Shown here one piece after another: positions 3,957 to 38,900 of a DNA stretch of 64,000 bases. Under the pieces are notes generated by a model. That model did no database searches and was not told the DNA's origin. It saw nothing but the letters and a program-made list of their open reading frames with translations. The DNA is from Clostridiales bacterium (GTDB lineage Bacteria > Bacillota > Clostridia > Christensenellales > DTU072), in the NCBI GenBank assembly GCA_012799455.1, contig JAAZLE010000096.1, positions 15,479 through 79,478 of the forward strand. The letters run 5' to 3'. The translations under genes and the position numbers were made by a program. Within the stretch, counting starts at the first letter, position 1; each line of letters starts with the position of its first letter.

Positions 3957-3962
3957 TAAATC

Positions 3963-4535
3963 AAATGGTGGTACAGTATTCTAGTCAGATACGGTACGAG
4001 CAAAGGCGGGGTTAAAATACCGTCAAAGAGCATATCGATGAAGTTTCTTGTGTTAGCTTAGATTGCCCAAATCTGGGTTGATGCTGGGAGTTAAGATTTT
4101 TGGGCGTTCTGCAAAGGCATGTTGAAGCCGTCCCAATTATCGTGGAGACCTATTTCGGCGGGGTTCACATTCTTCTGAATAGGATTAAACCTGTATTGCG
4201 GTAACCAATATCTGTGTGCAGTGTAGCTTGCCTTGAGTGAACTAATGAGGACTAAGGTTTCGGATTTCTATTAACACGCGAGTTTTTAGAGATTTTTGCT
4301 TATGAAACTTAGTTTGCAAAAGAGGATAGTTCGTATCCATTCTGTTAAAGAAATTTTCTAGACTGTTTTAAATTAAGGATTATGGTGTGTTCTTAGTGGT
4401 GATTCGGTTATACTGTGAGCGATCCTGTGTTGTTTGATTTAAAAGGAAACTGCTTGTACGGCGACGACGAGTATCAAATAGGGAAATCCTACCGAACCTG
4501 ATGACGCAAGGTTTACTTAGTTTAAGCCACCATTT
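3963..4535 (+). ncRNA. ole: OLE (ornate, large, extremophilic) RNA candidate, about 570 nt
   Basis: 712-bp ORF-free gap that is visibly richer in G+C than its flanks. A 10-bp closing helix pairs 3963-3972 (AAATGGTGGT) with 4526-4535 (GCCACCATTT). Local helices include 3991-3996/4018-4023, 4323-4327/4334-4338 and 4495-4499/4509-4513. It sits between ispA and a small 4-TM protein inside the nusB-xseAB-ispA...nadK-argR-recN cluster, the published OLE context. No RNase P or tmRNA signature motifs were seen. Confidence 0.75.
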
Positions 4536-4540
4536 GTTAG

Positions 4541-13220: not shown

Positions 13221-14396
13221 ATGAATAATGAACAATATGAATATAATTGTATTCTAATCAGACAAGGAGAAATATTTTTAAAGGGTAAAAATCGTAGTAA
13301 ATTTGAGTCATTACTTTTGAAAAACATTAAACAAAAACTTAAATCATTTAAATGTGCACTGCAATTATCGAGAAATCGTATTTATGTTGAAGATTTTAAC
13401 AAAGAAGATTTACAAAAGATAATTTTTGCTCTGTCTAAAACTTTTGGTGTTATTAGCTTAAGTAAGTCTGTAAAAGTCTCAACAGATATTGACAGAATAG
13501 CTGAGATTGCTGGGGATATGATACCAAACGAGGGGACGTTTAGGGTAACGGTTAAGCGAGCCGATAAAAGTATTAACCAAACGTCTACAGAAATTGCAGC
13601 ATATGTGGGTGGAAAAATTTTGAAAAACAAAAAAGATCTTAAAGTTGATTTACATAGTTATGATTGCAATATAAATATAGATATAAGAGAAAATGGTTTT
13701 TCATATATATTCACGGAAGTTATTCCTGCAGTTGGCGGATTGCCAGTAGGATGTAGTGGAACTGCCGCTCTTTTGTTGTCTGGCGGGATAGATAGTCCGG
13801 TTGCTGGATATTATATGAGTAAAAGAGGTCTAAAATTATTCGGTATTCACTTTTATTCTTTTCCTTACACAAGCGAATCGGCACTCCAAAAAGTAAGGGA
13901 TTTATCAAATATTTTATCAGAATATAATATTGGCTTTAATTTATATATAGTTCCGTTCACGGATATTCAACTAGCAATAAAAAATGCTTGCCCTCCTGAG
14001 CTCACGATTACAATTATGAGAAGATTTATGATGAGAATTGCGCAGAGAATTGTCAAGATGAACAAAACAAATGCGATTGTTACTGGCGAAAGCCTAGGAC
14101 AAGTTGCCAGCCAAACGATAAAAGGCATGATTTCAACAGATCAGGTTTTAGATAATGATATTTTGACAATTAGGCCACTTATTGGATTTGATAAAGAAGA
14201 AACCATTAAGATATCAAAAATGCTAGGTGCCTTTAATATAAGTACTTTACCCTATGATGATTGTTGTACATTATTTATTCCCAAAAACCCATCGATCAGC
14301 CCTAATCTTAAATTTGTTATAGAAAAAGAAAGTGCTTTAGATATTGACGCTTTAGTAAATAAAGCGCTAGAGAATATAGTTATTGAGCATTTTTAA
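13221..14396 (+). CDS. thiI: tRNA 4-thiouridine synthase ThiI
   Basis: 391 aa with a THUMP-like N-terminus and PP-loop LLSGGIDSPVA. A GAAAGGAG SD lies upstream. Confidence 0.93.
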   Translation: MNNEQYEYNCILIRQGEIFLKGKNRSKFESLLLKNIKQKLKSFKCALQLSRNRIYVEDFNKEDLQKIIFALSKTFGVISLSKSVKVSTDIDRIAEIAGDMIPNEGTFRVTVKRADKSINQTSTEIAAYVGGKILKNKKDLKVDLHSYDCNINIDIRENGFSYIFTEVIPAVGGLPVGCSGTAALLLSGGIDSPVAGYYMSKRGLKLFGIHFYSFPYTSESALQKVRDLSNILSEYNIGFNLYIVPFTDIQLAIKNACPPELTITIMRRFMMRIAQRIVKMNKTNAIVTGESLGQVASQTIKGMISTDQVLDNDILTIRPLIGFDKEETIKISKMLGAFNISTLPYDDCCTLFIPKNPSISPNLKFVIEKESALDIDALVNKALENIVIEHF

Positions 14397-14413
14397 GCGC
14401 TATTCGTTAATTG

Positions 14414-14442
14414 TTGCGAACTTTTAGCTGATTTAGTATAAT
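14414..14442 (+). promoter_or_regulatory. Sigma-A-type promoter ending 6 nt before the miaB ATG (leaderless-type layout)
   Basis: TTGCGA (14414-14419), 17-nt spacer, TATAAT (14437-14442), then TTTTGT and the ATG at 14449. No SD. Confidence 0.5.
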
Positions 14443-14448
14443 TTTTGT

Positions 14449-15798
14449 ATGTGTAATTTAGCATGTTTTTTTATTGAAACATTTGGTTGTCAAATGAATG
14501 TTTATGACTCGGAAAAGTTGGCAGGGATCCTCTCGGAGCTTGGATATTTGCCAACAAATGATGTTTCTCAGGCAAGTATTGTTGTTCTTAATACATGCTG
14601 TATTCGTAATACTGCAGAAAATAAAGTTTTAGGTAGGATTGGCGAGTTAAAAAAACTTAAGGATAAAAATAGAGAGATATTAATTATTTTAGTTGGTTGC
14701 ATGATTCAACAAGAAGATAAGGCTAAGGAGCTTTTAAAAAAACATTCTTTTATTGATATTTTTATAGGAACAAAAAATTTAAATAAATTATCGGCAATAA
14801 TTAAAAACACACTTCAAGATAAAAAGAATGAAAAACATAGTGAAAAAATATTTGTTGAACCTTTTTCTATAAATAATGATTATATAGAGCAGATAACTAC
14901 TCCTGCATATAGAACATCTTTCCCAAACGCTTGGGTTAATATTATAAGCGGTTGCAATAACTTTTGTTCGTATTGTATTGTGCCGTACGTGCGTGGAAGA
15001 GAAAAAAGTATACATCCAGATATAATATATGCTGAAGTTGTAAGTTTGTTAGAAAAGGGATATAAAGAAATAACCCTTCTTGGACAAAATGTTAATAGTT
15101 ATGGTAATGATAGTTTAGAAGGCTGGAATTTCAATGAATTACTTATAAGACTTGCAAAAATTAATATGAAATACAGGCTAAGATTTATGACATCTAATCC
15201 CAAAGATTTAACTCCTGAAATAATTTCGACTGTTAGGGAATATAATAACATATCAAAACATATTCATCTTCCTTTACAGTCAGGGTCTAATAGGATTTTG
15301 CAGCTAATGAATCGAAAATACACGTACGAAGACTACTATGATTTAACTAAAAAGATTAAAAAAATTCCAGATGTAGCCATAACAACAGATATTATGGTTG
15401 GATTTCCTACAGAAACAGAAGAAGATTTTTTAGACACGCTTCGCGCCGTAGAAGATATTAAATTTCATAATGCTTTTATGTTTGTTTATTCCGCGAGAAC
15501 TGGAACGCAAGCATCGAAAATGCCCCAACTCCCCAATAAGATTAAAAAGGAAAGGATAACAAGGTTGGTAGGAATGCAAAATGGGATTTCTCAAAACATT
15601 AGTCAAAAATACATAGGCAAAACATATGAGGTATTAATTGAAGACACAATAAAGGGTTCCAACAAAGTTTGTGGCCGTACAGATAATGGTAGGCTAGTGA
15701 GTATGGCTGGAGAAAGGGAATTAATTGGCAAGTTTGTAAACGTTAATATTATAACAACTAAGGGGTCATCTTTGATAGGAGAAATTGAAAATGATTAG
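14449..15798 (+). CDS. miaB: tRNA-i6A37 methylthiotransferase MiaB
   Basis: 449 aa. N-terminal UPF0004 cysteines (TFGCQMN...NTCCIR), radical-SAM CNNFCSYCIVP and a C-terminal TRAM domain. Confidence 0.93.
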   Translation: MCNLACFFIETFGCQMNVYDSEKLAGILSELGYLPTNDVSQASIVVLNTCCIRNTAENKVLGRIGELKKLKDKNREILIILVGCMIQQEDKAKELLKKHSFIDIFIGTKNLNKLSAIIKNTLQDKKNEKHSEKIFVEPFSINNDYIEQITTPAYRTSFPNAWVNIISGCNNFCSYCIVPYVRGREKSIHPDIIYAEVVSLLEKGYKEITLLGQNVNSYGNDSLEGWNFNELLIRLAKINMKYRLRFMTSNPKDLTPEIISTVREYNNISKHIHLPLQSGSNRILQLMNRKYTYEDYYDLTKKIKKIPDVAITTDIMVGFPTETEEDFLDTLRAVEDIKFHNAFMFVYSARTGTQASKMPQLPNKIKKERITRLVGMQNGISQNISQKYIGKTYEVLIEDTIKGSNKVCGRTDNGRLVSMAGERELIGKFVNVNIITTKGSSLIGEIEND

Positions 15799-18421
15799 TA
15801 AAGCACCGGAGTTATCAGAAATGATGAAACATTATTTCTATATAAAAGAACAGTATAGTGACTGTATTATTTTTTATAGACTAGGTGATTTTTATGAGAT
15901 GTTTTTTGATGATGCACTAACTGCTAGTAAAGTTCTTAATATTACTCTTACGGGACGTGATTGCGGGCTCTCAGAAAGGGCTCCTATGTGTGGTGTCCCA
16001 TATCATGCTGCTGATACATATATTGCAAAATTAATACAAGAAGGATATAAAGTAGCAATATGTGAACAATTATCATCTCCATCTGATCAAAAAGGTATGG
16101 TTAAAAGAGATGTAGTTAGGGTTATAACCCCTGGGACAATAACAGACGATAAATCTTTGGATGCGGAGTCTAATAACTATTTATTATCTGTATATATGGC
16201 TGGGGATTTTGCGGGTTTTGCATGGGCAGATATATCCACTGGAACTGTAAATGTTTATCAGCAACAAATAGACGGCATAACTCATTTCTTAGATCAAATT
16301 TTATCAATTAACCCATCGGAAATAATATCTAATAAGGAGGCTTATACTACAATACTTTCTACCGATTATGTTGAAAATGAAATGATAGTTAAGCCTGAAC
16401 ATTTTTATGAACTGTCTTTTGAGTTTGGCAATGCTACGGACTCAATACTTAAGTTCTATAGAATACAGACAACACAAGCGCTTGGGATGGAAACCACACC
16501 GTTTTCAGTCTGTGCTTTAGGCGCATTACTTAGATATATTGAATTAACCCAAAAACAAATGTTGGAACATGTGAAAATGCCTCAAGTAATTATGCGCGAT
16601 AACAGGATGTTTCTAGATTTTACCACAAAGAGGAATTTAGAGTTAGTACAAACGTTAATTGACAATAACAAGCAAGGTAGTTTATTAGGGGTTCTTGATA
16701 AAACGTCTACTAGTATGGGTGTAAGAGAATTAAAAAATACAATACTTGAACCAACTCGAGATTATGTAGAAATTAACAATAGGTTAGATGCCGTAGAGGA
16801 GTTGATAAAACATACCAACAGGAGATTAGACATCAAAGCCTCACTGTCAGAGATACGAGATATTGAAAGGTTGTGTAATAAAATTGCATACAATACAATC
16901 AATCCGCGTGAAATTATTAGTATAATGATTTCGTTAAAAAAAGTATTTGAAATAAAAGTTTTGTTAAAAGCGAGTAAAGCACAAGTTTTAAAATCCATAT
17001 ATACAAAACTGGATGATTTACCAGAACTTGTTAGTTTAATTACAAAAGCAATAACTGATAATCCTCCTATAACATTAAGAGATGGGATGGTAATTAGAGA
17101 AGGTTACAATGCGGAATTAGATAAATTAAGGAATGCTCAAAAGAATGCAAATAAATGGTTACTTGAATATGAACAAGAACAGAAAGAAGTAACGGGATTA
17201 AAAACACTAAAAGTAGGCTATAATAAAGTATTTGGGTACTATATTGAAGTAAGCAACTCATATCTTGATAAGGTACCTGATAATTATACGAGGAAGCAAA
17301 CCTTAAAAAGTGGTGAGAGATTTATAACTGAAGAACTTAAAAATATGGAAGAGTTGATCTTAAATGCATTCGACAAATCGATAGAGTTAGAGACTAGAAT
17401 ATATGACAATATCAAGGACGAACTAAGGTCAAATATAAAAAATATTCAAGATAACGCTTCATTAATCGCGAGGCTAGACGTATTAATGTCGTTCGCAGAA
17501 GTTTCTATACAAAATAACTATGTGAGACCTGAAATTAACTTCAAAAACAACGATATTATCATTAAAAATGGAAGGCACCCAGTAGTTGAGTCTCAGAGGA
17601 AAGGTAAGGCATTTATTCCTAACGATATATCACTTAAGGATGATGCTAAAACATTAATAATTACAGGACCAAACATGGGTGGAAAGTCTACATATATGCG
17701 TCAGGTAGCATTGATTATATTGATGTGTCACATGGGCTGTTTTGTCCCTGCAGAATACGCTTTAATTAGACCTATAGATAGGGTTTTTACAAGAATAGGA
17801 GCTAGTGACAATCTTGTTGCAGGTCAATCAACATTTATGGTCGAAATGACCGAAGCGGCGAATATACTTAATAATTCCACGTCTAACAGTTTAGTTTTAT
17901 TTGATGAAATAGGCAGAGGTACTTCTACGTTAGATGGATTGGCAATAGCATGGGCAATTGTTGAGTTTATTTCGTTAAAAATTAAAGCTTATACGTTATT
18001 CGCTACGCATTATCATGAATTATCTGAATTGGAATATATAATACCCACGATTAAAAACTATCATTTATTGATAAAATATACTGGTGGCGAAATGGTTTTT
18101 TTGTACAAACTTACTAGAGGAAGTACTAACAAGAGTTTTGGAGTTGAGGTAGCCTCGATGGCAGGTATAAACGATGTTGTTATAACAAGAGCAAAAAAAA
18201 TTATGGAGTTACTCGAAAAAACTCATAAAATATATGATATTAAAGAAATTGTAACGTCTGAGCCGGGAAAAGACGCAATACCGTTAAACCAAATAAGTTT
18301 TTTTGAAGCAGATACAAAAACAAAAGAAATACTTAATATAGTTGATGCAATAGATGTAAATAATTGTACGCCTTTTGAAGCATTAACAATACTTTCAAAT
18401 CTAAAAAACCTTCGTAAATAA
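15791..18421 (+). CDS. mutS: DNA mismatch repair protein MutS
   Basis: Walker A GPNMGGKST, STFMVEM and DEIGRGTST motifs. The ATG at 15791 overlaps the miaB stop; the ORF-track TTG at 15785 is less likely. Confidence 0.96.
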   Translation: MISKAPELSEMMKHYFYIKEQYSDCIIFYRLGDFYEMFFDDALTASKVLNITLTGRDCGLSERAPMCGVPYHAADTYIAKLIQEGYKVAICEQLSSPSDQKGMVKRDVVRVITPGTITDDKSLDAESNNYLLSVYMAGDFAGFAWADISTGTVNVYQQQIDGITHFLDQILSINPSEIISNKEAYTTILSTDYVENEMIVKPEHFYELSFEFGNATDSILKFYRIQTTQALGMETTPFSVCALGALLRYIELTQKQMLEHVKMPQVIMRDNRMFLDFTTKRNLELVQTLIDNNKQGSLLGVLDKTSTSMGVRELKNTILEPTRDYVEINNRLDAVEELIKHTNRRLDIKASLSEIRDIERLCNKIAYNTINPREIISIMISLKKVFEIKVLLKASKAQVLKSIYTKLDDLPELVSLITKAITDNPPITLRDGMVIREGYNAELDKLRNAQKNANKWLLEYEQEQKEVTGLKTLKVGYNKVFGYYIEVSNSYLDKVPDNYTRKQTLKSGERFITEELKNMEELILNAFDKSIELETRIYDNIKDELRSNIKNIQDNASLIARLDVLMSFAEVSIQNNYVRPEINFKNNDIIIKNGRHPVVESQRKGKAFIPNDISLKDDAKTLIITGPNMGGKSTYMRQVALIILMCHMGCFVPAEYALIRPIDRVFTRIGASDNLVAGQSTFMVEMTEAANILNNSTSNSLVLFDEIGRGTSTLDGLAIAWAIVEFISLKIKAYTLFATHYHELSELEYIIPTIKNYHLLIKYTGGEMVFLYKLTRGSTNKSFGVEVASMAGINDVVITRAKKIMELLEKTHKIYDIKEIVTSEPGKDAIPLNQISFFEADTKTKEILNIVDAIDVNNCTPFEALTILSNLKNLRK

Positions 18422-18432
18422 AGAGGTGATAA

Positions 18433-20325
18433 ATGATTATCAATGTATTAGATAGTTCAATATATAATCGAATTGCAGCGGGAGAAGTTATAGAAAAGCC
18501 TGCTTCGGTAGTAAAAGAGCTTATTGATAACAGTATAGATTCGGGCGCAACAGAAATTAAAGTTTTTGTTGAACAGGGTGGAATTAAAAGCATAGAGGTT
18601 TCTGATAATGGGTCTGGTATTCCTAAGGCAGAACTATATAAAGCGATATTACCGCATGCAACAAGCAAGATTTCTAGTGCTGAAGATCTTTTTTCTATAT
18701 CTACACTAGGTTTTAGAGGTGAGGCGCTAGCATCTATTGCTGCAGTTAGTGAGTTTGAAATTAAAACAAAATACCATACGGAATCAAATGGTGCTAAACT
18801 TTATTTACAGGATAATGAATATGTAGTTTCGGATATAGCTTGGACAGATGGGACGACGGTCTTTGTTAAAAATTTATTTTACAATGTACCAGCTAGGTTT
18901 AAATTCTTAAACTCAAGGTTAAGCGAAGAAAATAGTATAAAAAAAGTGGTAAGTCAGTTTATACTATCCCATCCTAATATATCGTTTTACTTATATTGTA
19001 ATGATAAGTTAGTTTATGCTAGCGAAGGTTTGGGTATTGAAGAGGCGATACAGATTGTTTTTGGACGAGAAACTGCAAGTAGTTTAATACCCATAAAGGC
19101 AAAACATTTGAGCAGTAATAATTATATAATACAGGGATATATTTCTCCACCAGCAGTTTATAAAAACAACCGGTCACTACAGTTTATAATTATCAATGGA
19201 AGAGTTGTTGTTGATGCTAATATATCTGCCACTGTGCAGAATGCATATTCTGACAGATTAATGAAACACGCTTTTCCTATATTTGTTTTAGACATTGCAA
19301 TCCCTTTTGATGAAGTTGATGTAAATGTTCATCCAGCAAAACGTGAAATTAGGCTAGCATTTTCAAAAAAATTATTAGGATCTATTTATAATTCAATACA
19401 AGAGACGCTTGTGGATTTTGAGCTTTTAAAACAGGCTGAGCTTTTTAAGCATAACAGCTTATTAGAGACTAACAAACACGAATTAGTGAATAGTATTAGT
19501 AACGATGAGGATATGGTAGTTAATCTAGATAATAAAAAATTAGATTGTTTGATAGATAAAGAAGAATCTCCAATTAATAAAGACTTTTATACAAAGGATT
19601 TGTTGAAGAAGCATCAACAAGTTGAAACTAAATTGGAAGATGATGGTGTCATTCGAGCAATTATTACAGACAAAAATATACATGGTCAATCTCAAGCTGA
19701 ATACCCCCAACCAAGCTTGTTTAAACAAAATGATAATATTTCATATAGAGTTATTGGACAAGTGTTTAATACTTACTTAATTATAGAAGCATCCGATAAG
19801 GTACTATATATTGATCAACATGCCGCTCATGAAAGAATTTTATTTGATAAATATAATAATGAAATACAAAACAATATTGTGGCTTCTCAACAAATGCTTA
19901 TTCCGTTTTTGTATGAATGTACGATAAATGAACACGATGTTTTAATGAAGGAAAAAGAGAACTTAATGCAATTAGGTTTTGAAATAGAAAGTCTGGGAAT
20001 AAACACAATAAAAGTTACTTCCATTCCTTCTGTGTTCACGGAAAAAGTAAATCTAAATAAGTTGTTTAATGATATCATAAGTTTAAGTTTACATGTTTCA
20101 GGATTGGACAATTTTTCATTGAGTAAATTAATTAGAGATAAGGTTGCCTCTATTGCGTGTAAGGCTGCGATTAAAGGCAATTTAAACCTCTCGGATGAGA
20201 GTATTAAATATATAATAGAATACTTTTTTTCAGAAGGCATGCCATTACAATGTCCTCATGGTCGACCAACGGTAATATCGTTTGATAAATATGACATAGA
20301 AAAGGAATTTAAAAGAAAAACATGA
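18433..20325 (+). CDS. mutL: DNA mismatch repair protein MutL
   Basis: 630 aa GHKL ATPase N-terminus (VKELIDNSIDSGAT, DNGSGI, GFRGEAL) and a C-terminal dimerisation/endonuclease region. Confidence 0.96.
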   Translation: MIINVLDSSIYNRIAAGEVIEKPASVVKELIDNSIDSGATEIKVFVEQGGIKSIEVSDNGSGIPKAELYKAILPHATSKISSAEDLFSISTLGFRGEALASIAAVSEFEIKTKYHTESNGAKLYLQDNEYVVSDIAWTDGTTVFVKNLFYNVPARFKFLNSRLSEENSIKKVVSQFILSHPNISFYLYCNDKLVYASEGLGIEEAIQIVFGRETASSLIPIKAKHLSSNNYIIQGYISPPAVYKNNRSLQFIIINGRVVVDANISATVQNAYSDRLMKHAFPIFVLDIAIPFDEVDVNVHPAKREIRLAFSKKLLGSIYNSIQETLVDFELLKQAELFKHNSLLETNKHELVNSISNDEDMVVNLDNKKLDCLIDKEESPINKDFYTKDLLKKHQQVETKLEDDGVIRAIITDKNIHGQSQAEYPQPSLFKQNDNISYRVIGQVFNTYLIIEASDKVLYIDQHAAHERILFDKYNNEIQNNIVASQQMLIPFLYECTINEHDVLMKEKENLMQLGFEIESLGINTIKVTSIPSVFTEKVNLNKLFNDIISLSLHVSGLDNFSLSKLIRDKVASIACKAAIKGNLNLSDESIKYIIEYFFSEGMPLQCPHGRPTVISFDKYDIEKEFKRKT

Positions 20326-22647: not shown

Positions 22648-22664
22648 GAAAACATCAAGTTTTC
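22648..22664. promoter_or_regulatory. Inverted repeat GAAAAC-N5-GTTTTC (candidate operator)
   Basis: GAAAAC (22648-22653), ATCAA, GTTTTC (22659-22664), in the intergenic region upstream of the recombinase-lexA operon. Confidence 0.25.
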
Positions 22665-22680
22665 ACCGCCCCCTCTCCGC

Positions 22681-22714
22681 ATCTATTCGTAAAATCTGTA
22701 TTTTGCGAATAGAT
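22681..22714. other. 34-bp near-perfect inverted repeat, candidate dif-like Xer recombination site
   Basis: ATCTATTCGTAAAAT CTGT ATTTTGCGAATAGAT has 15-nt arms with a single T/G position. Read as a Xer site it gives 11-bp arms TATTCGTAAAA and TTTTGCGAATA around a TCTGTA centre. It lies about 120 bp upstream of the XerS-like recombinase and 3.2 kb from the gene-strand switch. No T-run follows on either strand. Confidence 0.45.
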
Positions 22715-22822
22715 ATGAAACAATAAACCTGCACTCACCTATTGTAAAAAATTTTTAGATTTATGATGTCAAGATAAAAATTTATTAGGATTTATATAAA
22801 GTTATTAATATGATTTTAAATA

Positions 22823-22831
22823 TGTTATAAT
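22823..22831 (+). promoter_or_regulatory. Extended -10 element ending 6 nt before the recombinase ATG (leaderless-type layout)
   Basis: TGtTATAAT (TG 22823-22824, TATAAT 22826-22831), then ACAATC and the ATG at 22838. No SD, and the -35 is weak. Confidence 0.45.
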
Positions 22832-22837
22832 ACAATC

Positions 22838-23926
22838 ATGGGAAAAAATAATTATTTTGAATCGGAAAAGCTAAAACAATTATCAAAATTAAATGATATA
22901 TTGGAAAATGAGTTGCCCTATTTTTGCAACGAATTTTTTATAGGAATTTCTATGCGTGTAACACCATCAACTCAGCTTAATTATGCGAGAGATTTAGCGG
23001 TTTTTTTTGATTTCCTTGTAAAAAAAGTTAATCATTTCTATGGGAAATCTATAAATTCACTTTCACTCACAGATCTGGATGCCCTAGAAAGTCAGCATAT
23101 AGAGTTTTATTTAAGTTATCTATCTTATTACATATATAATGGCAGAATTAGAACTAATACAGAACGCGGGAAGGCGCGTAAATTAAGTGCTGTTAAGTCA
23201 ATGTTAAATTATTTTTATAAAAGAGATTTAATTCAAGAAAATGTTAGTATTAAGGTTTCATCACCTAAAATACATGATAAACCTATTATTAGACTAGATA
23301 ATGATGAAATAGATTCAGTTTTAACAGTAGTAGAGAAAAAATCAAAATTTTATTCTCAACGTCAAGATAACTATAATTCAGCCCTAATCAAGCGTGATTC
23401 AGCCCTACTAACTTTACTACTTGGGACTGGTATAAGAGTTAGTGAATGTGTTGGATTAAATGTATTAGACATAGATTTTAAAAATAATGCATTTAAGGTT
23501 ACTAGAAAAGGTGGTAACATAACGATGTTGTATTTTTCTGACGAAGTAAAACTGGCGTTAGAAGATTATCTTCATTGGCGAAATAATAGATTATTACGAG
23601 CAAATAAAATTGATACACCTGCCCTATTTATAAGTTTGCAAAATAAACGTATTACAACTAGAGCGGTTGAGAATATTGTTAAAAAATATGCTAAATTAAT
23701 TTCTCCTCTAAAATCAATTTCTCCACATAAACTGAGAAGTACTTATGGAACTGCCTTATACAGGGAAACTAAAGATATATTTGTTGTTGCTGAAGTTTTA
23801 GGACACAAAGATGTAAACACTACTAAAAAGCACTATGCAGCAATTTCAGAGGACATAAAGAGAGAAGCCTCGACGAAAGTTCAATTACGTAGACAGAATC
23901 AAGCTGACAATGACGACAGTATTTAA
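22838..23926 (+). CDS. Tyrosine recombinase, XerS-like (long single-Xer type)
   Basis: 362 aa with the full catalytic set: GIRVSE (Arg), VTRKGG (Lys), HKLRST (His-x-x-Arg) and LGHKDVNTTKKHY (His and Tyr). Length and motif spacing resemble streptococcal XerS as I recall it. No phage or ICE genes flank it. Confidence 0.85.
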   Translation: MGKNNYFESEKLKQLSKLNDILENELPYFCNEFFIGISMRVTPSTQLNYARDLAVFFDFLVKKVNHFYGKSINSLSLTDLDALESQHIEFYLSYLSYYIYNGRIRTNTERGKARKLSAVKSMLNYFYKRDLIQENVSIKVSSPKIHDKPIIRLDNDEIDSVLTVVEKKSKFYSQRQDNYNSALIKRDSALLTLLLGTGIRVSECVGLNVLDIDFKNNAFKVTRKGGNITMLYFSDEVKLALEDYLHWRNNRLLRANKIDTPALFISLQNKRITTRAVENIVKKYAKLISPLKSISPHKLRSTYGTALYRETKDIFVVAEVLGHKDVNTTKKHYAAISEDIKREASTKVQLRRQNQADNDDSI

Positions 23927-23950
23927 ATATTATTTAAAGAGAGTTATTAA

Positions 23951-24571
23951 ATGAAAAAAAACACTATAAACGAGAATATAAACAAATTAAGAGTTTTTTT
24001 AAAAGACTATTTTTTGCAAAATTCTTACCCGCCTACTGTCAGAGAAATTTGTGATTATATGGGTTTCAAATCTACATCTAGTGCCCATAAATATCTTAGA
24101 ATACTTAGTGATATTGGCGATATTTCAATTAATTCAAATATAAGTAGAGGTATTAGACTCGAAAATAAACTATTAGGCATCTCTGAATTTTATTATGTGC
24201 CACTTGTAGGAGAGATTACTGCTGGACAGCCTATTTTCGCCGAGGAATCATATTCCGCATACTTCTCAATCCCAAAATCCTTGTTTGGTTTTAATAACAC
24301 TTTTTTCATGCTTAAAGTTTCTGGTTCTAGTATGATTGATGTAGGCATTAATGATGGAGATTTTATTTTAATTAATAAACAATCATATGCCACAAATGGA
24401 GATATTATAGCTGCCCTAATAGATGATGAATATGCAACTGTAAAAAGGTATTTTCTTGAAAATAACAGGGTTAGATTACATCCTGAGAATAGAAATATGA
24501 GTGATTTTTACCCTGAAAATATTAAAATATTAGGCGTCGTAAAAGGGCTTATTCGTACAGAGGTTAAATGA
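23951..24571 (+). CDS. lexA: SOS repressor LexA
   Basis: 206 aa. N-terminal wHTH (PPTVREICDYMGFKSTSSAHKYLRIL), Ala-Gly cleavage region VGEITAGQPI, and the Ser/Lys dyad (GSSM ... TVKRY). Confidence 0.95.
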   Translation: MKKNTINENINKLRVFLKDYFLQNSYPPTVREICDYMGFKSTSSAHKYLRILSDIGDISINSNISRGIRLENKLLGISEFYYVPLVGEITAGQPIFAEESYSAYFSIPKSLFGFNNTFFMLKVSGSSMIDVGINDGDFILINKQSYATNGDIIAALIDDEYATVKRYFLENNRVRLHPENRNMSDFYPENIKILGVVKGLIRTEVK

Positions 24572-25893
24572 TGACTAAAATGAACACGATTAATACGGAC
24601 TTATTTAGAAGCCGAGTAGATATAATTGTATTGAGTACTTTGTCAGATAAAGATCGATATGGGTATGAAATTTTGGAAGTTATTGTGCAAAACTCAGTGA
24701 GTCATTATGAAATTAAACAATCAACATTATATAGTATTTTAAAAAGGTTAGATAGTTTAGAATATATTTCCTCGTACGACGGTATAGAGACTCATGGTGC
24801 ACAACGTAAATATTATACTTTAACGGATAAAGGTAGAAGTTATTTAGAAGCACAACAATATGAATGGGAATATACCAGAACGCTTTTAGATAAATTAGTT
24901 AGTGACAAACCTGTTGACTTAATTAATGCATTATCTCCCCCACCATACAATCCAAAAGACTTAAAGCCGATGACGCCAAGAAGACAAACTGAACAAACTC
25001 AAGAGGATGAGGGTTTTAATCAAACTAATAACTTAAATAGTGACTTACGCTCACTTACTGATGAAAAGACCGAATCCCCTACAAGATTAGAATTGGTAGA
25101 TCAAGAAGTTTCAGTTCAAGAAAAATTAGAAAGAGAGCGTGCAGAGAGGATTTTAGGGTTAGGTGTTTATTTACCGCTAGAAACAACAAACTTAACCAAT
25201 AGCAACAATAATGAAGTAAACAAACATGCTACACTTGCGAGCATTGGGACCGATATAGATGAAACAAGTGACTCTACACTAGATATAAACTATCGAGAAG
25301 CGTTAGGATCGTTATATACTAATACTTCTACGTCAGGCGAAGAAATAGTATGTGAAGCAAATGAAGAAGTAATGTATATTAAAGCGGAAAATATGCGATA
25401 TCCTCACTATAACGATATGAAACAGAGGTTGTTTGATGATGGATATACTGTAAAAACTTACAATAAGGCTAATTCTACGAATTTCTATTATATGAATTAT
25501 TACTATTCCAATAAACTATTTAGGGACTTATCAATAACCATATATGTGTTTTACGCTTCTTTAATTTTACTATTAAAGCTAGTTCCTATTAATTCATTAG
25601 AATTATCAACACTATCAGTGTTCATTTTATTAATAACAGGATTTTTGGTCCCAATTGTTAGATTGTTAATTTATTTTAAAAACCCCTTAAAGAGAATTAG
25701 AGCAAAATTTGACCCGTTAAAAATAAGCATCGGTTGTATCATATGGATAACTATAGCAATTTGTATTATTTTTATTTTTAATGTAATAAACGATGCGTTA
25801 TATATAACATTTGTTTTATATTTGAGTGTGCCATTTAAAATAATAATATACTACCTTTTATTCAGATCAAATAAATACCATCTAAAAAAATAA
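24568..25893 (+). CDS. PadR-family winged-helix regulator fused to a long polar linker and a C-terminal multi-TM domain
   Basis: The N-terminal ~100 aa are PadR-like (DIIVLSTLSDKDRYGYEILEVI...STLYSILKRLDSLEYISSY...RKYYTLTDKGRSYL). An acidic/polar linker of about 200 aa follows. The last ~120 aa contain about four hydrophobic helices. The start overlaps the lexA stop (ATGA). Confidence 0.8.
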   Translation: MMTKMNTINTDLFRSRVDIIVLSTLSDKDRYGYEILEVIVQNSVSHYEIKQSTLYSILKRLDSLEYISSYDGIETHGAQRKYYTLTDKGRSYLEAQQYEWEYTRTLLDKLVSDKPVDLINALSPPPYNPKDLKPMTPRRQTEQTQEDEGFNQTNNLNSDLRSLTDEKTESPTRLELVDQEVSVQEKLERERAERILGLGVYLPLETTNLTNSNNNEVNKHATLASIGTDIDETSDSTLDINYREALGSLYTNTSTSGEEIVCEANEEVMYIKAENMRYPHYNDMKQRLFDDGYTVKTYNKANSTNFYYMNYYYSNKLFRDLSITIYVFYASLILLLKLVPINSLELSTLSVFILLITGFLVPIVRLLIYFKNPLKRIRAKFDPLKISIGCIIWITIAICIIFIFNVINDALYITFVLYLSVPFKIIIYYLLFRSNKYHLKK

Positions 25894-25922
25894 TTATAAC
25901 AACTACTATCATCATTGTTCAG

Positions 25923-26360
25923 TTATTTTGTTAACGATTCACGTCTAGCGATTTCGTCACATCTGTTATTATATTGATTGTCTGAATGACCGACTACTTT
26001 AGTAAATGTAACAATATGAGACTGTGTTAAGTCCACAAGCCTTACCCATAAATCTTTATTTTTAACAGGCTTACGTGTTTTAGTTTTCCAATCATTATTC
26101 TTCCAATGAACGACCCATCCTTCTTGAAACGCATTAACTAAATAGGCACTATCAGAATATACATTTACAAAGCAAGGTTCTTTTAATGCTTCTAAACCTT
26201 TTATTGCAGCAAGCATTTCCATGCGGTTATTTGTTGTTTCTGGAACATGACCATATAGAACTTTTTCATATTGTTGATAAATTAATATAGCACACCAGCC
26301 CCCATTGCCAGGATTTCCACTACAAGCTCCATCTGTATAAATGTCGACTCTTTTTTGCAT
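25923..26360 (-). CDS. rnhA: Ribonuclease HI
   Basis: VDIYTDGACSGNPGNGGW, NNRMEMLA and HSDNQYNNRCDEIA motifs. The ATG at 26360 is preceded by GGAGGA lying in the end of proC; the ORF-track TTG at 26366 is less likely. Confidence 0.93.
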   Translation of the reverse strand: MQKRVDIYTDGACSGNPGNGGWCAILIYQQYEKVLYGHVPETTNNRMEMLAAIKGLEALKEPCFVNVYSDSAYLVNAFQEGWVVHWKNNDWKTKTRKPVKNKDLWVRLVDLTQSHIVTFTKVVGHSDNQYNNRCDEIARRESLTK

Positions 26361-26362
26361 TA

Positions 26363-27166
26363 TCAATCCTCCGAAAGTAGTTTTGATTTAGCAGCGCAGG
26401 CACTAACACCTTTATCGATAATTTCATTAAGTTTGGCTGTGTTGAATAGATTAATAGCTTCTACTGTCGTTCCGCCCTTACTTGAGACTTTTTCAATCAA
26501 TGTATCTAACGAGTCTTTTGAATTAATTGCAAATAAAGTGCTTCCTAATACAGTATTAAATACAAGTTTTTTACTGATTTCAGGAGAAAGCCCTACCTTT
26601 ACACCTGCGTCAATTAAACTTTTTAGAAAATAAAATACATATGCTGGTCCGCTTCCACTAATACTTGTAAGGGCATCAAATTGCTTTTCTTGTATTTCAA
26701 CGACCTCTCCACAAATATTAAAAATATTATTAATAAAGTTAAATTCGTTGCTTTCAATTTTTTGAGAATAATAAATTCCTATAGTTCCGTTTCCTTCCAA
26801 ACAAGGTAAATTAGGCATGGCTCTGATTACAGGACCATCAAAACTTATGGTTTTTTTAATTTTTGACACACTTACACCTGCCATAATAGATATGATATAT
26901 TGAGATAAAATGCTGTTTTTATTAAGTTTTAGTTGAAAAAATGTTTGTGGTTTAATAGCTAAAAATGTAATTCTTGCTTTATTAAATACATCATAAATAT
27001 TAGTTGTTGTATCAACTCCTATACTACTATAATAAGAAAGTTTTTCTGAATTAATATCACATATTATTATATCGTCATTATTAATACAACTTTTATGTTG
27101 TAATATATTATTTATAATAGCGCTACCCATATTTCCAGCACCTATAAATCCCAATTTATATTTCAT
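26363..27166 (-). CDS. proC: Pyrroline-5-carboxylate reductase
   Basis: MKYKLGFIGAGNMGSAI Rossmann start and a C-terminal SKGGTTVEA motif. An AAAGGAG SD precedes the ATG at 27166. The longer ORF-track start (27262) would run through the tRNA gene. Confidence 0.93.
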   Translation of the reverse strand: MKYKLGFIGAGNMGSAIINNILQHKSCINNDDIIICDINSEKLSYYSSIGVDTTTNIYDVFNKARITFLAIKPQTFFQLKLNKNSILSQYIISIMAGVSVSKIKKTISFDGPVIRAMPNLPCLEGNGTIGIYYSQKIESNEFNFINNIFNICGEVVEIQEKQFDALTSISGSGPAYVFYFLKSLIDAGVKVGLSPEISKKLVFNTVLGSTLFAINSKDSLDTLIEKVSSKGGTTVEAINLFNTAKLNEIIDKGVSACAAKSKLLSED

Positions 27167-27183
27167 AGAACACTCCTTTTTTA

Positions 27184-27213
27184 TTGACATAATATCAATT
27201 GTATATATATAAT
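27184..27213 (+). promoter_or_regulatory. Consensus sigma-A promoter for tRNA-Trp
   Basis: TTGACA (27184-27189), 18-nt spacer, TATAAT (27208-27213). The tRNA starts 13 nt downstream. Confidence 0.6.
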
Positions 27214-27225
27214 TAATTAAGTTGT

Positions 27226-27301
27226 AGGGGAGTGGCTCAATTGGTAGAGCATCGGTCTCCAAAACCGACGGTTGCGTGTTCGAGTCGCGTCTCCCCTGCC
27301 A
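27226..27301 (+). tRNA. trnW: tRNA-Trp (anticodon CCA), CCA end encoded
   Basis: Manual cloverleaf: acceptor AGGGGAG/CTCCCCT, D arm GCTC/GAGC, anticodon stem TCGGT/ACCGA with loop CTCCAAA, 5-nt variable loop, T arm GCGTG-TTCGAGT-CGCGT, discriminator G and CCA. 76 nt in total. Confidence 0.97.
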
Positions 27302-32971: not shown

Positions 32972-35900
32972 TTATTTCCTTTTTGAATGTTTTTTCGAGA
33001 AGGCTTTTAACATAGATCTTCTACTCAGGATAGAGATTAATACAATTAAAACTATAACACCAGCAATGGACCCAATAATGATATACATCATATTGTTTTC
33101 TGTAGGACTGGTTGGTTTTTCATAGATAATTTCATACTCTTCCGTAATATATTCGTATTCATAATTAGAGTCAATACCCCCGCTAGGTTGAGCTATATTT
33201 GTACCTACTTGCGAGTTTGATAAACTGAGCGAAGGAAGCCCTAATAAATCTTCTTCTGAGTCACCAGGTAAAAAACCTTCATAATGTAATGTATAAGCAG
33301 GTTTTTGTCCTGCAGGTGTAGATTTGTCGATAACTGGGATAACTTTCAAAACAGCTTTTTTTACTCTAATAGATATTGAACTAGTTCCAGCAATATAATA
33401 ACTATCGTTGGATACGCCAACATTTATAAAGTATTGCGCAGCATCAATTATTTGGGTTTGTGTAAATGGTTGATTATCTTTTCGTATTTGTAATATGGGG
33501 TAACAAGTATCATTGGGGGCAATTCCTTGTATAGATATGCCTAGTTCTGGAATTTTATCTCTCCCATTATATATAAACTCTTCCACTATGTTTCCTTCGG
33601 TATCTTTTGGTTTTAGGTCAAAAACTATACGTACCTGTTTTTGTGAAATTTTAATTTCTCTTGTAACTTCTGTAGAGATATAATTACTGAACGGATTTAA
33701 TTCTGTTTGTGCCGGAGCCTGATATTTAGCAATTACCGTATGGTAGCCAGCCTTCGGATATAATGGCAACAATCCGTTTTCTTCAGCGAACGAATAAGAA
33801 ACTTCTAAAGCTTCATCTAAACCTTCTGCAATTGCTCGTGCTGTAAATTCCTGAAAACAAGTTCCATATTCTTGATAAGAATTACCATCTAAAACTATAG
33901 TTGGTTTTACTTTTTTAATCTCTAGTTCTGTAGTAGGTCCTCTTAAAGTATATCCAGAATCATTTGTTATTTCAGAAGATACTATATAGATACCTGCATT
34001 TTTAGGTGGTGTGCTTGATTTTGCGTAAAAAACACCTTCTTTTCCTTGGTAGTATACTTTAATGTTTACGGTAGTATTGTAACCATCTAGATCGCTGTTT
34101 GTGCTACCTGGAACGATAATTTCATTATTAAGTTTTAAAGTTGCGCCTGGTATATAATATTCTACTTCAGGAGACACTACGACAGGATTATTATTAAAAT
34201 GTGTAGGGTTAGGTTTGTTAAATTTAATTCTTGCTAATGACAAGATTCGCGCTTCTATTTCAAAACTCTCATTTGCAAGAATATAATTAGAACTTTGCGA
34301 TCCTCCAGATATAGATATGTTCTTAACTATAACTTTTGCATTTGGATCATCTGGCAGGAATGTGTTTAGTTCAGCTGCATATGAAATATTGACAAGCCCT
34401 ATGTCCTTTTCCAGCAGTCCATATAAAATAAAATGTTCATTGGTTATATGTGCTAATGTAGTACTATCTGCAGGTTTTCTAAAAACAACACCACTCGGAA
34501 TTATCTCAATAGTTTTTTGCTTGATGATGAAAGAAGAAGTAAAACTGTCGGCATCGTTGAACACGACATCTTCTTCATTTGAATGATAAATAATATCGTA
34601 GTTCTTTATATTTGCGTTTTCGTTTAGAGCTAGCTTAACTACATAGTTGCCAGCATCTTTAATATTTGAATTACAAACAATAGATTCACTCGAGTCACTA
34701 TACACAACACGAAGAGACAAATTAAGTAATGTAGGAGAGTCAGAGCCAACAAATGAGTACTCGGTATTTTTATATTTGCCGTAATTTATATGAAATTGAA
34801 CATTTGTATTGCCTTGATATAGAACGGTTTCAGTACCATGATAATTTGATATTATTGTAGGACTTTCGCCATAATAAATTGAAGGTTCAGTTTCTGTTGT
34901 TATGCGGGATAGTGTAATTGGCATTTTAACCTTATCAATTCTACCATTTTCACATATAACAAAGGGATCTGGGAGCGTGAAATTATTTACAGAGTCGGCA
35001 TTTACACTAAAATAAACTTTAATTTTTTTGTTAATACCTGCATCTGAATCTGCCTCTCCTTCTGTTGTTGAAATAAACATGCCAGACACATTAAATCCTC
35101 TATTAAATAGCTCTTGGTTTTTAGATGATAGCAGAGCTCTGCTTTCAGGTTTTAGAGAAATTTTCCTTTGGTCAATTCTATTATTACCGTCATATATTTT
35201 GCTATTACTATAAGCAATGTCTATATCAGCAATATCGACCACATATTTTTCAATCATTAAAACTGCAGAGGTTTTTAATACAGTTATATCATTAAATTCG
35301 TATAATTGTAAGCGATAGTTTTTGGCTTCTTCGCCTATAAAGGTATATGTAATTTGATATCCTCCAGGAATATAGTTCTCACCTAATTGCCTAGTACACT
35401 TAATTAAGTCGCTCCATACAAAATTCTCAGGATTAGCATTATAAGCGTTTTGAAGAGTCGTTGGTAAATCAGAAATTTTAACCTTAAAATTACTATCGCT
35501 ATAAAAATCCGGATCAGCTTCTCCGTATACTTTAATAAAATCTTTAATTTGTAAGGTTACAGGTCTGCCTACTATTATATATTTATTTTTCCCACCAGAA
35601 TTGTTCGTTCCACTAATTTTAAATGAAATGTTTTCATTTGTTTCATAAATCCCAATTATGTCGTATATTCCTGCATCTGGAGATTCTCCACCAGTTCTTG
35701 AGTAAGTAAGATCTACAGATACTGTTGTTAATGGCATGACAACATTGATTGTTTCTGTAGGAGTTAGCGGTTGAATTCCTTCTGTCCACTCATCCCACTG
35801 AATTGTAAACTGTTTCGGTGTTATGTTATAAATGCGCTCGATAATTTCAAATCTAAAAACTGCCCCAACATCATCTGTCGCGCTTAAGTTTACTGAAACA

Positions 35901-38900
35901 TTATAGTTTAAACTTCCAGTATAACTATGTCCAGTATAGTAGTAAGTACCAACATTTTCTCCGGGAGTGCGAATAAGAACTGTACTAATATAACCATCTT
36001 CTCCTAGCCCTGTTGTTTTAACAGTAAGGTCACTTACCTCATCAAGTTCGCCATATGTTTTTGTTATGTTTATGGGAACTAAGGTTATATAATACGGTGT
36101 TACATTAAAAATCTTGGTATCAAGCACGTTTTCACTCGTATATATGTAATAATTGCTATTATTAGATATGGTTGCTTTTACTTTATACTGCCCGCAGTTT
36201 TTATAACTGGTTTGTGAGCCTGGGGTGTAGTATGTAACTTCTGTATTGTCTAGACTAATGCTTTTATCTAGGTACGATTCGACATGGGCTAACAAATTAA
36301 TCGTTTCTCCTTCTATTATGCCTGAAGGCTCAGAAGATAATTCAGAAACATAACCATCTCCTCCGGTTAGTGCTACGGGTATCTCGCTACTCGATGCGCC
36401 CGTGTACTGAATGTTCTCGCTTAAATTAAAGGTGATTTGAACTGGTCTCGGTTTAATTTTGAAGTGTCTTTCTAAGACACTATCAAATTCAGGATTTTCT
36501 ACTTCTGTGATTAAAACATAATTTTTTTCTGTATTTGCGAGATTTATTGTAATTCTATAGTTGTCAGATACAGTGTAAGCTGTATCTACTTTTTGTAGTC
36601 CATTATATACTTGCTTGTCAACTCGAGGTTCATCTCCAGTAATGTATGAAAATCCTGGTCTATAGGAATATCTTATTGCGTCTGCAATGTTTTGATTTGC
36701 ACCTCCATACGTAAATTCTTTATTGTTCTCCAATGGAAGTTCATTATATGTTAAGTACAATTTTAAAGGTTTTGGCGTGATTTCAAATCTCACAATATTA
36801 GGTTCTGTGCTCAATATTTTATAGTTGTTATTGTTCGAATGGGCGGTTACGGTGTAAACTCCAGCTTGCGATACAGAAGTTGTATTTATACCAGTGGTGC
36901 TAGTATATTGCAATCTAGTAATGTTTTCAATGGTATCTGTACCTAATGGCCCATATCCCGGCTTAGCTGAATATTGAATATGTTGAGCAGATTTATTATA
37001 TATTCTTGTATTGTCTTGGCTAAATGAGATAATTAAGTCCTTTGGTTTAACAATGTAGTTTAGTATGTTACAGTTTTGGGCAGTTGTATTTGGTAGGTTA
37101 CTGCTGGTAATTAAGTAATTTGTAAAACTTTCGGAACCACTATTCCCTGTAAGAGTTACAGTTGTTTGATAAGTTCCAGCATTAAATATTTGCCCAGTAG
37201 GAATCCTGTTTGTTGGAGGTCCATACAAATGATCTTGTTTTAAAGATACTAATCCGGAATCAGGTTCCGCTAGAGGTTTGTTTGTATCAAACTGCACACC
37301 GATAGAAAGAGGCTCATTAATGAAAGTTAGGTTTGAATATGAAGAAAACAGTATGCCTAATTCGCGTTTTAGAATATTGAATGTCCTTGTTCTGTTTGCT
37401 TCAATGGGCATTCTATAGTTTTCTTCTGTGAATTTTATGATAACTTTATAGTTTCCAGCTGCCTTAGGGTCTAAACAAAGAGAAGATGTTGTAGTGTCAT
37501 AAAAATCATAATAAATTGTAGGAGATTGATCTCCACTTATTACCCCAGATAAAGTAGCACTGATGTCAGTTTTCTTAGACTGAGCATTATAAATCAAGGT
37601 CTGGGGAATGGATATATTTACATTAAGTAATTTTTTTGTAATTGTAAAGGTTGTAGTAATGTTGTCTTTAAAATTACCTTTACCAACAATTTGCACGCTG
37701 GCAGCTGCATTGCCAGCATTAATATTGTTTGAGTATGTCAGTGAATAGTCCCTATCTTTTATTAATAAGACTCCTCTATATCTAATGCTTGGAAGTGGTT
37801 CTTTCGCAGAAAAACTATATTCTTGATCAGGAATTGCGTCAATGGTTAAATGCTGCTCCCCGTTAATACTACGTGCAGTAATGCTAACAGTTCTTTGCTC
37901 AAAAGTAGTTTTAACTTTGTATGAAGGATTAGATACACCACAGATTAATGTGTATGAACCGACATTTATAACAGCAGAATCTCCCCAGTTTTTAGTTACA
38001 TTAACCGTATCGCCCGAGACAATCTCAGAAGTTGTAACATTTACAATGACACTATCTTTTTTGCTATATGAGTCATATATGAATGATAGCGTCCCATAAG
38101 TTAGGGAAACTTCTTTGGGTATGACTTCTATTTCTTGAGAGTTCGTGTTAGTATTTATTGTGTAGTTAGTTGTTAAATATCGATAGTTTCCTTCTGTTCC
38201 ATTTTTGATAAATGCAGTTGCGTCGTATTTTCCAACGGTTCGAACTTCCGTGATAGGAGTGTTGTTTTTGTCTTTGTAACTTAGTCCAAGATATTCTGAG
38301 GTGAGTTCCGTGTTGAGTGTTGAAACATTGACTTTTAGTCCATCGGCGGAGCCAATGTAATTCCCGCCATTGTATGTAAGAGGTTGAACCGAGGAATTTG
38401 TTCCTGTCGTAAAAAACACATCAACGTTCCACGGGTTTATGATAATTCCTGTGATGGTAATTTGTGAAGTATTATAAATGTAATAATTGTTTCTTCCTTC
38501 CGTTTCTGTTTTGATTGCGGTTGCAGAATAAGTTCCAGCATTTCTTAATTCAGAAACAATAACATTATTAGCATTTTTGTATTCAGCGGTAATGGAAACT
38601 GTGTCTCTCGCGTATATTTCAGACTGTGCATTTTCAATTGAACATTGGAATGCATGAGGGTTTTTATCAAAGGTAAAGATCTTATTTGAAGGCCAAAGAA
38701 CTTTTATGGCTTTTGGCGTTATGCCGAAACTGATACTATAGCTATTTATAATATTTTGGTCTTCGGGAAGTCTATAATTAGCGACGTCTTCTCCTGATAG
38801 TGAGCCAACTCTAGTATGGTAAGTACCTACATCTATGCACTCAAAAGGATCGTTTGAGGTGCTGTTCTTAAACGTTAGAGAAGAAACATTAACGATGTCG

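Follow-up and report, generated by a model that had tools for sequence, protein, structure and literature searches.

A candidate single-recombinase Xer/dif-type module in Clostridia: a 34-bp palindromic site beside a XerS-like recombinase gene

Introduction

The known single-recombinase Xer systems are XerS/difSL, XerH/difH, archaeal XerA and XerL (PMC5357621, PMC9765430). Among them, XerS/difSL is the system of streptococci and lactococci (Le Bourgeois 2007, PMC1914069; Nolivos 2010, PMC2965235). Here we describe a locus in a 64,000-nucleotide stretch of DNA from a Clostridiales bacterium (GenBank assembly GCA_012799455.1, contig JAAZLE010000096.1, positions 15,479 to 79,478; the whole stretch is called the window below), in which a 34-bp palindrome precedes the gene for a 362-aa XerS-like tyrosine recombinase. 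As in XerS/difSL, there is one recombinase that is longer than XerC/D (about 356 aa for XerS), the site is just upstream of its gene, and the locus is at a GC-skew switch. The original prediction made for this DNA had named an AAAA-centre-TTTT inner-arm layout for such sites, and this layout is indeed common to the window site and difSL, along with a TTC-G/C-rich outer part (difSL arms, TTTCCGAAAA and TTTTCTTGAAA). We propose that the palindrome is probably the core site at which a chromosomal module of the Xer/dif kind carries out site-specific recombination, likely resolving chromosome dimers.

Where and by what means dimers are resolved in most Clostridia is poorly established. A large dif survey failed for Clostridium perfringens and C. 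beijerinckii, and the 'dif' that it gave for C. botulinum E3 was 174 degrees from the skew shift. A canonical dif at the terminus has been predicted in published work for Desulfotomaculum and Desulforudis. In the literature searched, a limited body that does not amount to proof, we found no description of a XerS-like or single-recombinase system in Clostridia, in line with what had been supposed for a Clostridia-like lineage. The module is apparently an undescribed variant of the single-recombinase Xer/dif kind.

Results

The palindrome occurs once in the window

The site and the gene that follows it are arranged in the window as follows.

22681..22714, no strand assigned: candidate recombination core site (dif-like), 34 bp, judged from its arm and centre layout, uniqueness, orthologous loci and element junctions
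22681-22694: left arm of the 34-bp site, ATCTATTCGTAAAA
22695-22700: centre of the 34-bp site, TCTGTA
22701-22714: right arm of the 34-bp site, TTTTGCGAATAGAT
22838..23926, plus strand: XerS-like tyrosine recombinase, 362 aa (PF00589, 1.7e-30), its 5' end facing the site

The palindrome, ATCTATTCGTAAAATCTGTATTTTGCGAATAGAT, was found exactly at 22681-22714, with the 15-bp arms and the one T/G position that had been predicted. A repeat finder gave 15-nt arms, 93% complementary, with 4 nt between them, and the sole non-Watson-Crick pair is T22690 versus G22705. None of 100 dinucleotide shuffles matched it. In the whole window it occurs once, even when 3 mismatches are allowed. The original prediction had divided it into two 11-bp arms around a 6-bp centre; the layout of arm, 6-bp centre and arm stood, and comparative data (see below) refined the division to 14-6-14. 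The recombinase open reading frame (ORF) begins 123 bp past the palindrome.

The element had been judged a poor terminator. No T-run follows it on either strand, the terminator scan makes no call there, and the combination of GC-rich stem and T-run that marks an intrinsic terminator is lacking. A scan of the window at Rfam gathering thresholds gave no family at the palindrome, its only matches, both in other places, being a tRNA and an OLE (ornate large extremophilic) RNA. As RNA, the palindrome folds well, the 121-nt context reaching −22.7 kcal/mol with a z-score of −4.6.

Adjoining the site (window 22648-22680) are a small palindrome, GAAAAC-ATCAA-GTTTTC, and then a C-rich patch, CACCGCCCCCTCTCCGC, in a genome of 31% GC. 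CGCCCC patches resembling it are also present in L001 and L004 (the loci used for comparison are cited by L number). In other clades the opposite arm has ATTCCC(T/C) at a distance of 8-12 nt, and the inserted elements described below have GGGGAGAGCC about 8 nt from their good arm. These C-rich or ATTCCC(T/C) patches could be accessory sequence.

The arms of the site are conserved across relatives

We compared 12 orthologous loci, on contigs whose recombinase homologues are 83, 72, 65, 60, 58 and 56% identical to the window protein, among others. The neighbourhood of the gene is conserved in the contigs at these six identities. Exactly one TTCGNAAAA-N6-TTTTNCGAA match was found upstream of the gene in 12/12 loci, and in all of them the arms are identical while the surrounding intergenic DNA is unalignable. 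Both 14-bp arms are kept even in relatives with a recombinase of just 42-83% identity, although the 6-bp centre and all of the flanking DNA vary. The centres vary by lineage, and include TCTGTA, TCGGTA, TTGGTA, GACAGA, CACAAC, CAAGGG and CTCGGG.

For genome searching the site can be written as CTATTCGYAAAA-N6-TTTTRCGAATAG; in the complete genome of Christensenella sp. Marseille-P2438 (LT700187.1) it is located near 2.27 Mb. A genome collection with one genome per species was scanned with the pattern TTCGYAAAA-N6-TTTTRCGAA, and at least 120 loci from 120 different assemblies were obtained, with one site per locus when copy number was counted within loci of 8-64 kb. A homologue of the recombinase family, taken as a hidden Markov model (HMM) score of at least 200, is near the site in 54 of the 120 listed loci, usually at a gap of 30-300 bp. 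The 5' end of the gene faces the site in all 52 loci for which orientation was computed (at least 40% identity).

In the 54 species-level loci, flank positions −4 to 0 and +25 to +29 are also conserved; the conserved arm is 14 bp long, A-(A/T)-C-T-A-T-T-C-G-Y-A-A-A-A, and conservation ends there. The first base of the centre is never A and the last base never T. At the variable arm position, the 54 sites have the pairs T/A (18), C/G (18), C/A (11) and T/G (7). Since the non-pairing C/A combination is frequent, the pattern points to recognition of half-sites by a protein, not to a hairpin.

Taken together, the site is a conserved recognition element of the protein type, single-copy at each locus and linked to the XerS-like recombinase family. 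The site-plus-gene pair, for which a search in related genomes had been advised, is kept across many Clostridia with one site per locus, and the dispersed copies that would mark a repetitive extragenic palindrome (REP) were seen neither in the window nor in the scanned loci.

Some other matches to the site stand apart from the gene. In L079, L113, L116, L120 and L034 (Planococcus, Peribacillus) we found TTCGTAAAA-GTGTAC-TTTTACGAA with a fixed centre (GTACGC in L034) and no recombinase near; this palindrome is probably a different element, e.g. an operator or hairpin. Core-matching sites also lie 0.8-2.6 kb upstream of lexA at L017:440, L109:765, L077:1958 and L088:4348 (Clostridiaceae and Mageeibacillus metagenome-assembled genomes, Halanaerobiales), and no tyrosine recombinase was detectable in these four loci.

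Integrase-less elements are inserted at the site

Six assemblies have one and the same recombinase, P0079 (56% identity to the window protein). In L133 the site is empty and reads ...TTTTGA AACTATTCGCAAAA CACAAC TTTTGCGAAATT AATGTGG... In the others it holds inserts of 7.7 kb (L134), 4.9 kb (L135), 1.6 kb (L136 and L138) and more than 9.5 kb (L137), and the homology of L134-L138 to L133 ends precisely at the site. In both junctions the centre separates an arm of the chromosome from an arm of the element: in attL the left arm is chromosomal and the other is a degenerate element arm, ATTGAGAAATGA, and in attR a good arm, TACTATTCGCAAAA, comes from the element and the right arm from the chromosome. 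The last base of the centre goes with the right arm in L135 (CACAAG in attL, CACAAC in attR), so that the crossover would have taken place inside the centre or at its left edge.

The elements of the P0079 lineage carry genes for a rolling-circle Rep (PF23343, phrog_3419) and for a repressor of the Cro/CI type, and no integrase was found among their genes. With integrase-less inserts, hybrid attL and attR junctions and an empty allele in the same species (L133 versus L134-L138), the site has the marks of a target of mobile elements that integrate by making use of Xer (IMEXs).

A second, independent lineage has a recombinase 50% identical to the window protein, and its arms, ATCTA...TAGAT, are like those of the window. 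Here, in L255, a prophage of 6.5 kb that has Rep and Zot-like genes lies between a perfect site (12081) and a degenerate copy (5512). In L097, L072, L059, L035 and L045, a full site is accompanied by a lone half-site near the gene, 0.6-1.7 kb apart, and these pairs look like remnants of element insertions. The insertion evidence comes from relatives with 50-56% recombinase identity and not from the window's own clade. Because integrase-less elements sit there with hybrid junctions, the sequences indicate that DNA recombination occurs in nature at the site.

An exact search of IMG/VR for the L134-type attP gave 0 matches. Small IMG/VR contigs were considered as free phage genomes carrying attP, an interpretation that was dropped for L190. 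This 6958-bp 'viral genome' with Rep and Zot-like genes is, over the last 1.4 kb of its right end, 99% identical to the site-recombinase interval of a host (L285, a 479-kb gut contig), and L190 is a prophage-host junction. We therefore count matches on viral contigs only as elements adjoining the site.

The position of the site does not depend on the recombinase gene

Across genomes, the site lies between a block of mutS, mutL, miaA and a methionine-gamma-lyase-family gene (MGL) and a block of RNaseH and P5CR. Both blocks converge on the site, whichever direction the recombinase gene takes. Synteny probes were used here, as automatic orientation of flanking ORFs was too noisy, the ORFs running on over the site. 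In L066 and L042, MGL precedes the site, housekeeping genes on the opposite strand (Lon/ClpX, TruB/RibF) come after it, and no recombinase is present within 5 kb. In L373, it is 3.5 kb from the recombinase gene, beyond serS, at a convergent junction. A site beside its recombinase gene, as predicted, is thus what we found in the window and in 12/12 orthologous loci, while in some lineages the site stands alone at a convergent junction. As it persists without the recombinase-lexA operon (see below) or far from it, the site is unlike an operator of these genes.

Near the L373 recombinase gene (13244-19056 region), recA is 3 kb and ftsK 7 kb away. This presence of ftsK and recA within 3-8 kb of the gene is the sole hint of a link with FtsK. 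A separate 162-aa ORF with an FtsK-gamma domain adjoins ftsK in L374-L380 (L374:16565-17053), not in L373.

If the mutS and P5CR blocks are used to orient the loci, most centres read nYKGTr, whichever way the recombinase gene runs. This is suggestive of a centre polarity tied to the replichores, and the two gene arrangements probably go back to few ancestral events.

Homologues are also encoded on large plasmids of Butyrivibrio hungatei (pNP144) and B. proteoclasticus (pCY186), and about 90 bp upstream of each of these genes is a palindrome of its own with a similar layout. These palindromes are diverged, e.g. ATTATTGCGTTAAA-CATATC-TTTAGCGCAATAAT, and are followed by TGnTATAAT (L252:2350-2385; L251:2349-2384). 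Such plasmid modules fit a role in multimer resolution on each replicon.

The recombinase is closest to XerS

The predicted 362-aa ORF with its R-K-HxxR-H-Y catalytic set was confirmed. The protein belongs to the tyrosine recombinase superfamily (PF00589, E 1.7e-30, 106.5 bits against a cutoff of 27.1), and R200, K224, H297, R300, H323 and Y333 are unchanged across 118 family members. The top NCBIfam model is XerS (NF003462), which aligns in one stretch over HMM positions 8-357 of 360 and scores 168.3 bits, below its cutoff of 267. XerC (TIGR02224, 154.3 bits, cutoff 335), XerD (TIGR02225, 141.6 bits, cutoff 330) and the XerA model (152 bits) also stay under their cutoffs. The relatives in L022, L030, L090 and L040, at 142-181 bits, do not reach the XerS equivalog cutoff of 267 either; for reference, a true XerS, from Bacillus sp. 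ISL-34 (L056), scores 431 bits.

By BLASTP, window residues 10-359 align with residues 12-375 of the L056 XerS at 29% identity (E 2e-34). The protein has the length of XerS (362 aa versus about 356 aa) and is colinear with it over the full length, including the long N-terminal domain. The resemblance to XerS that had been noted from size and motif spacing therefore stands as regards the best model and the full-length alignment, but not as regards the equivalog cutoff. The nearest solved structures are E. coli XerD (the best, 79 bits) and archaeal XerA, and the XerH chain 5jjv_A is a much weaker match (33 bits). By these comparisons, the protein is a predicted Xer-type enzyme that is closest to XerS and outside the XerS, XerC and XerD equivalog families. 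Clostridia assemblies contain thousands of homologues of 345-360 aa, the best 120 listed being 55-83% identical to the window recombinase.

Clustering with phage integrases had been named as a sign that the prediction was wrong. It was not seen for the integrases of cultured phages, to which identity is at most 29%; two closer 'phage' matches (46-50%) are unannotated gut 'Bacteriophage sp.' contigs. The protein has neither the close similarity nor the location in a mobile element expected of an integrase of a phage or an integrative and conjugative element, its gene being flanked by core genes whose synteny is conserved. No second tyrosine recombinase was found in the 64 kb around the skew switch, and no sequence in the window comes as close as 8 mismatches to the dif of B. 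subtilis or E. coli; a rival recombinase or a classical dif had been the other thing to look for.

In L056, 1.2 kb separate the XerS gene (3866-4993, minus strand) from a site that shares the core, TTCGTAAAA-TACTCA-TTTTACGAA (L056:6170-6193). Genes annotated as xerS are also present on Metabacillus, Paenibacillus and Peribacillus plasmids.

Putative operon, promoter and terminus setting

Upstream of the site in the window are mutS, mutL, miaA and the MGL gene (PF06838). The features downstream of it, with the putative promoter element, are listed here.

22823..22831, plus strand: extended -10-like element, TGTTATAAT, 6 nt before the ATG, with no Shine-Dalgarno sequence
23951..24571, plus strand: lexA (TIGR00498, 173 bits, cutoff 111), starting 24 bp past the recombinase stop
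24568..25893, plus strand: 441-aa protein with an N-terminal PadR domain (PF03551, 4e-17), with a 4-nt overlap with lexA; the final gene ahead of the strand switch
25400..25930, no strand assigned: GC-skew maximum and convergent gene-strand switch (terminus-like), from skew values and ORF strands

The order of recombinase and lexA is kept in many relatives, and the PadR-domain gene is likewise near the module. Judged by gene spacing, it is plausible that the recombinase, lexA and PadR-domain genes form an operon, which agrees with the earlier placing of the recombinase and lexA in one operon. The layout of TGnTATAAT, 6 nt and ATG is repeated in L001 and L005. Because this layout recurs and there is no Shine-Dalgarno sequence, it suggests that the recombinase-lexA-padR mRNA may be leaderless. 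A simple promoter scan of the window did not call the element. No LexA box of the Firmicute Cheo type (GAAC-N4-GTTC) was found near the operon, the lone match in the window, at 6992, being expected by chance.

GC skew is +0.19 over 1-22680, +0.09 over 22715-25893 and −0.085 over 25894-64000, and the cumulative G-C curve peaks at about 25.4 kb. All long ORFs are on the plus strand up to 25893 and on the minus strand from 25923. The site is 2.7-3.2 kb from the skew and strand switches; the predicted distance of 3.2 kb from the strand switch was right, and the site does lie near the skew switch, where a dif would be expected. The sign of the skew also flips at the site locus in L133, L001, L005, L011 and L004. 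The locus looks like a replication terminus, placed within about 3 kb.

Elsewhere in the window, 3952-4546 (plus strand) holds the full-length OLE RNA (RF01071, 402.8 bits, model positions 1-616), and 32972-41362 (minus strand) an ORF of 2796 aa. The tRNA gene at 27226-27298 (plus strand) runs into the minus-strand P5CR ORF (26363-27262) at its 5' end, which was extended mechanically; the true start of that gene is probably further downstream.

Discussion

If the palindrome is the core site of a Xer/dif-kind module, the product of the adjacent gene would be the enzyme acting at it, and chromosome dimer resolution would be its physiological job. Two XerS-like monomers would bind the two identical 14-bp arms as a homodimer, and two sites on a dimeric chromosome would synapse. 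Tyr333 would cut at the borders of arm and centre, and strands would be exchanged over the 6-bp centre via a Holliday junction. The one crossover added at the terminus would convert the chromosome dimer into monomers. Since the arms are identical, the order of strand exchange would have to come from the centre or from an outside factor. The reaction may be coupled to division or FtsK, and co-transcription with lexA suggests that the supply of recombinase may be tied to DNA damage. The evidence for this proposal is all comparative.

Several observations weigh against it. The sites that bracket the L255 prophage differ in their centres, which simple two-strand exchange does not predict. Skew and gene-strand switches coincide, so the terminus is placed only to about 3 kb. 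The uniqueness of the site holds per 8-64-kb locus, and a canonical XerCD/dif may be present elsewhere in the same genomes. The recombinase is absent near the site in 21 metagenome contigs and several genome loci. Finally, XerC/D-like recombinases of about 320 aa abut same-arm sites, including on small virus-like contigs. They score 208-258 bits, below the cutoffs, and their sites have TTCGYAAAA/TTTTRCGAA arms and AT-rich centres (genome loci L029, L032, L036, L050, L078; IMG/VR L140, L142, L180). They co-occur with a rolling-circle Rep on the small virus-like contigs, and appear from their context to be element-borne integrases that share the arm sequence.

This last observation also favours the serious rival, that of a domesticated integration module. 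Here the site would be a landing pad kept by the host, or what is left of a former int/att pair, and a conventional XerCD/dif elsewhere would resolve dimers. Elements demonstrably integrate at the site, XerS-annotated genes and homologues occur on plasmids, and for some Clostridia, Desulfotomaculum among them, a canonical dif close to the terminus has been predicted. Yet the synteny with core genes is conserved over lineages with 42-83% protein identity, no mobile-element genes flank the module in the window, and it is located at the skew switch. The inserted elements bring no integrase with them, as is usual for elements that exploit Xer, and neither a canonical dif nor another recombinase was found in the 64 kb around the switch. 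We consider domestication unlikely, though well worth keeping in view.

A good deal less probable still is that the palindrome serves only as an operator of the recombinase-lexA-padR operon, bound by LexA, the PadR-domain protein or the recombinase. The inverted repeat is conserved and precedes an operon with genes for two DNA-binding regulators, and conserved arms with a variable spacer would suit a dimeric regulator. But the only -10-like element is about 110 bp downstream of the palindrome, which does not contain the GAAC-N4-GTTC LexA box; loci that lack the operon, or have it kilobases off, still keep the palindrome; and insertions break exactly at it, making hybrid sites. The site may have an autoregulatory role as well. 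Least credible of all is a mere RNA or DNA hairpin, whether a terminator or stabiliser for the upstream MGL gene or a REP-like repeat: the good fold and the G-U-compatible T/G as the window's lone arm difference would suit it, but the element has no T-run, terminator call or Rfam match, is single-copy at each locus rather than dispersed, carries a non-pairing C/A in 11/54 sites, keeps its place whichever gene lies upstream, and is contradicted by the insertion junctions.

Beyond the proposed Xer/dif role of the locus itself, we can picture a wider one, which is quite possible and which we put forward tentatively. The module may be the main, possibly the only, dimer-resolution system of much of Clostridia (Christensenellales, together with many uncultured lineages of gut and rumen). 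It may be related to XerS/difSL, tied to the SOS response via lexA, and have a centre polarity fixed by the replichores. It may also be the attachment site of unrecognised Gram-positive, inovirus-like elements that exploit Xer.

A conserved gene-plus-site module at the terminus is a concrete, testable candidate for medically and ecologically important gut anaerobes. If borne out, it would add a bacterial single-recombinase Xer lineage beside XerS, XerH and XerL, and would hint at the origin of XerS/difSL. It would pinpoint where integrase-less filamentous-type phages integrate in Gram-positive anaerobes, and so help prophages to be found. One protein and a 34-bp site would also offer a compact tool for genetically difficult Clostridia. 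The lexA linkage leads to the testable idea that the capacity for dimer resolution is coupled to the DNA-damage response.

Comparison with known systems

XerCD/dif, with its two distinct recombinases and its asymmetric dif of 28 bp, is unlike the window module, whose protein scores 154 and 142 bits against the XerC and XerD cutoffs of 335 and 330. The inserted elements resemble the IMEXs of XerCD/dif, namely CTX-phi, TLC-phi and VGJ-phi (PMC5357621, PMC4246890): both are integrase-less, have a rolling-circle Rep and in some cases a Zot-like protein, both leave one good site and one degenerate hybrid, and in both arrays and remnants build up.

XerH/difH of Helicobacter and Campylobacter is alike in its single recombinase of about 355-362 aa and in the site beside the gene. 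It differs in phylum, and the sequence relation is far weaker (33 bits for 5jjv_A versus 79 bits for E. coli XerD). XerL/dif of Legionellales is likewise a single-recombinase system, whose dif was recognised through the integration of mobile elements and has long uninterrupted inverted repeats, with a homologue also on a plasmid (PMC9765430). In L. pneumophila, however, xerL is more than 400 kb from dif (PMC9765430), whereas the gene of the window type usually abuts its site; XerL/dif also belongs to a proteobacterial lineage and an unrelated protein family.

XerS/difSL, for all the likenesses given at the outset, is also distinct. The window protein is 29% identical to XerS and scores 168 bits against the cutoff of 267. 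The 31-bp difSL has unequal, imperfect arms and a centre of up to 11 bp (PMC5357621), whereas the window site has identical 14-mers and a 6-bp centre. The difSL consensus, ATTTTTCCGAAAAACTATAATTTTCTTGAAA, has its best match in the window at 6171, with 8 mismatches, and not at the site. The window module is linked to lexA, and its hosts are Clostridia rather than Streptococcaceae. In sum, the module differs from the known single-recombinase systems in protein family, site, host range and lexA linkage, and the nearest of them is XerS/difSL.

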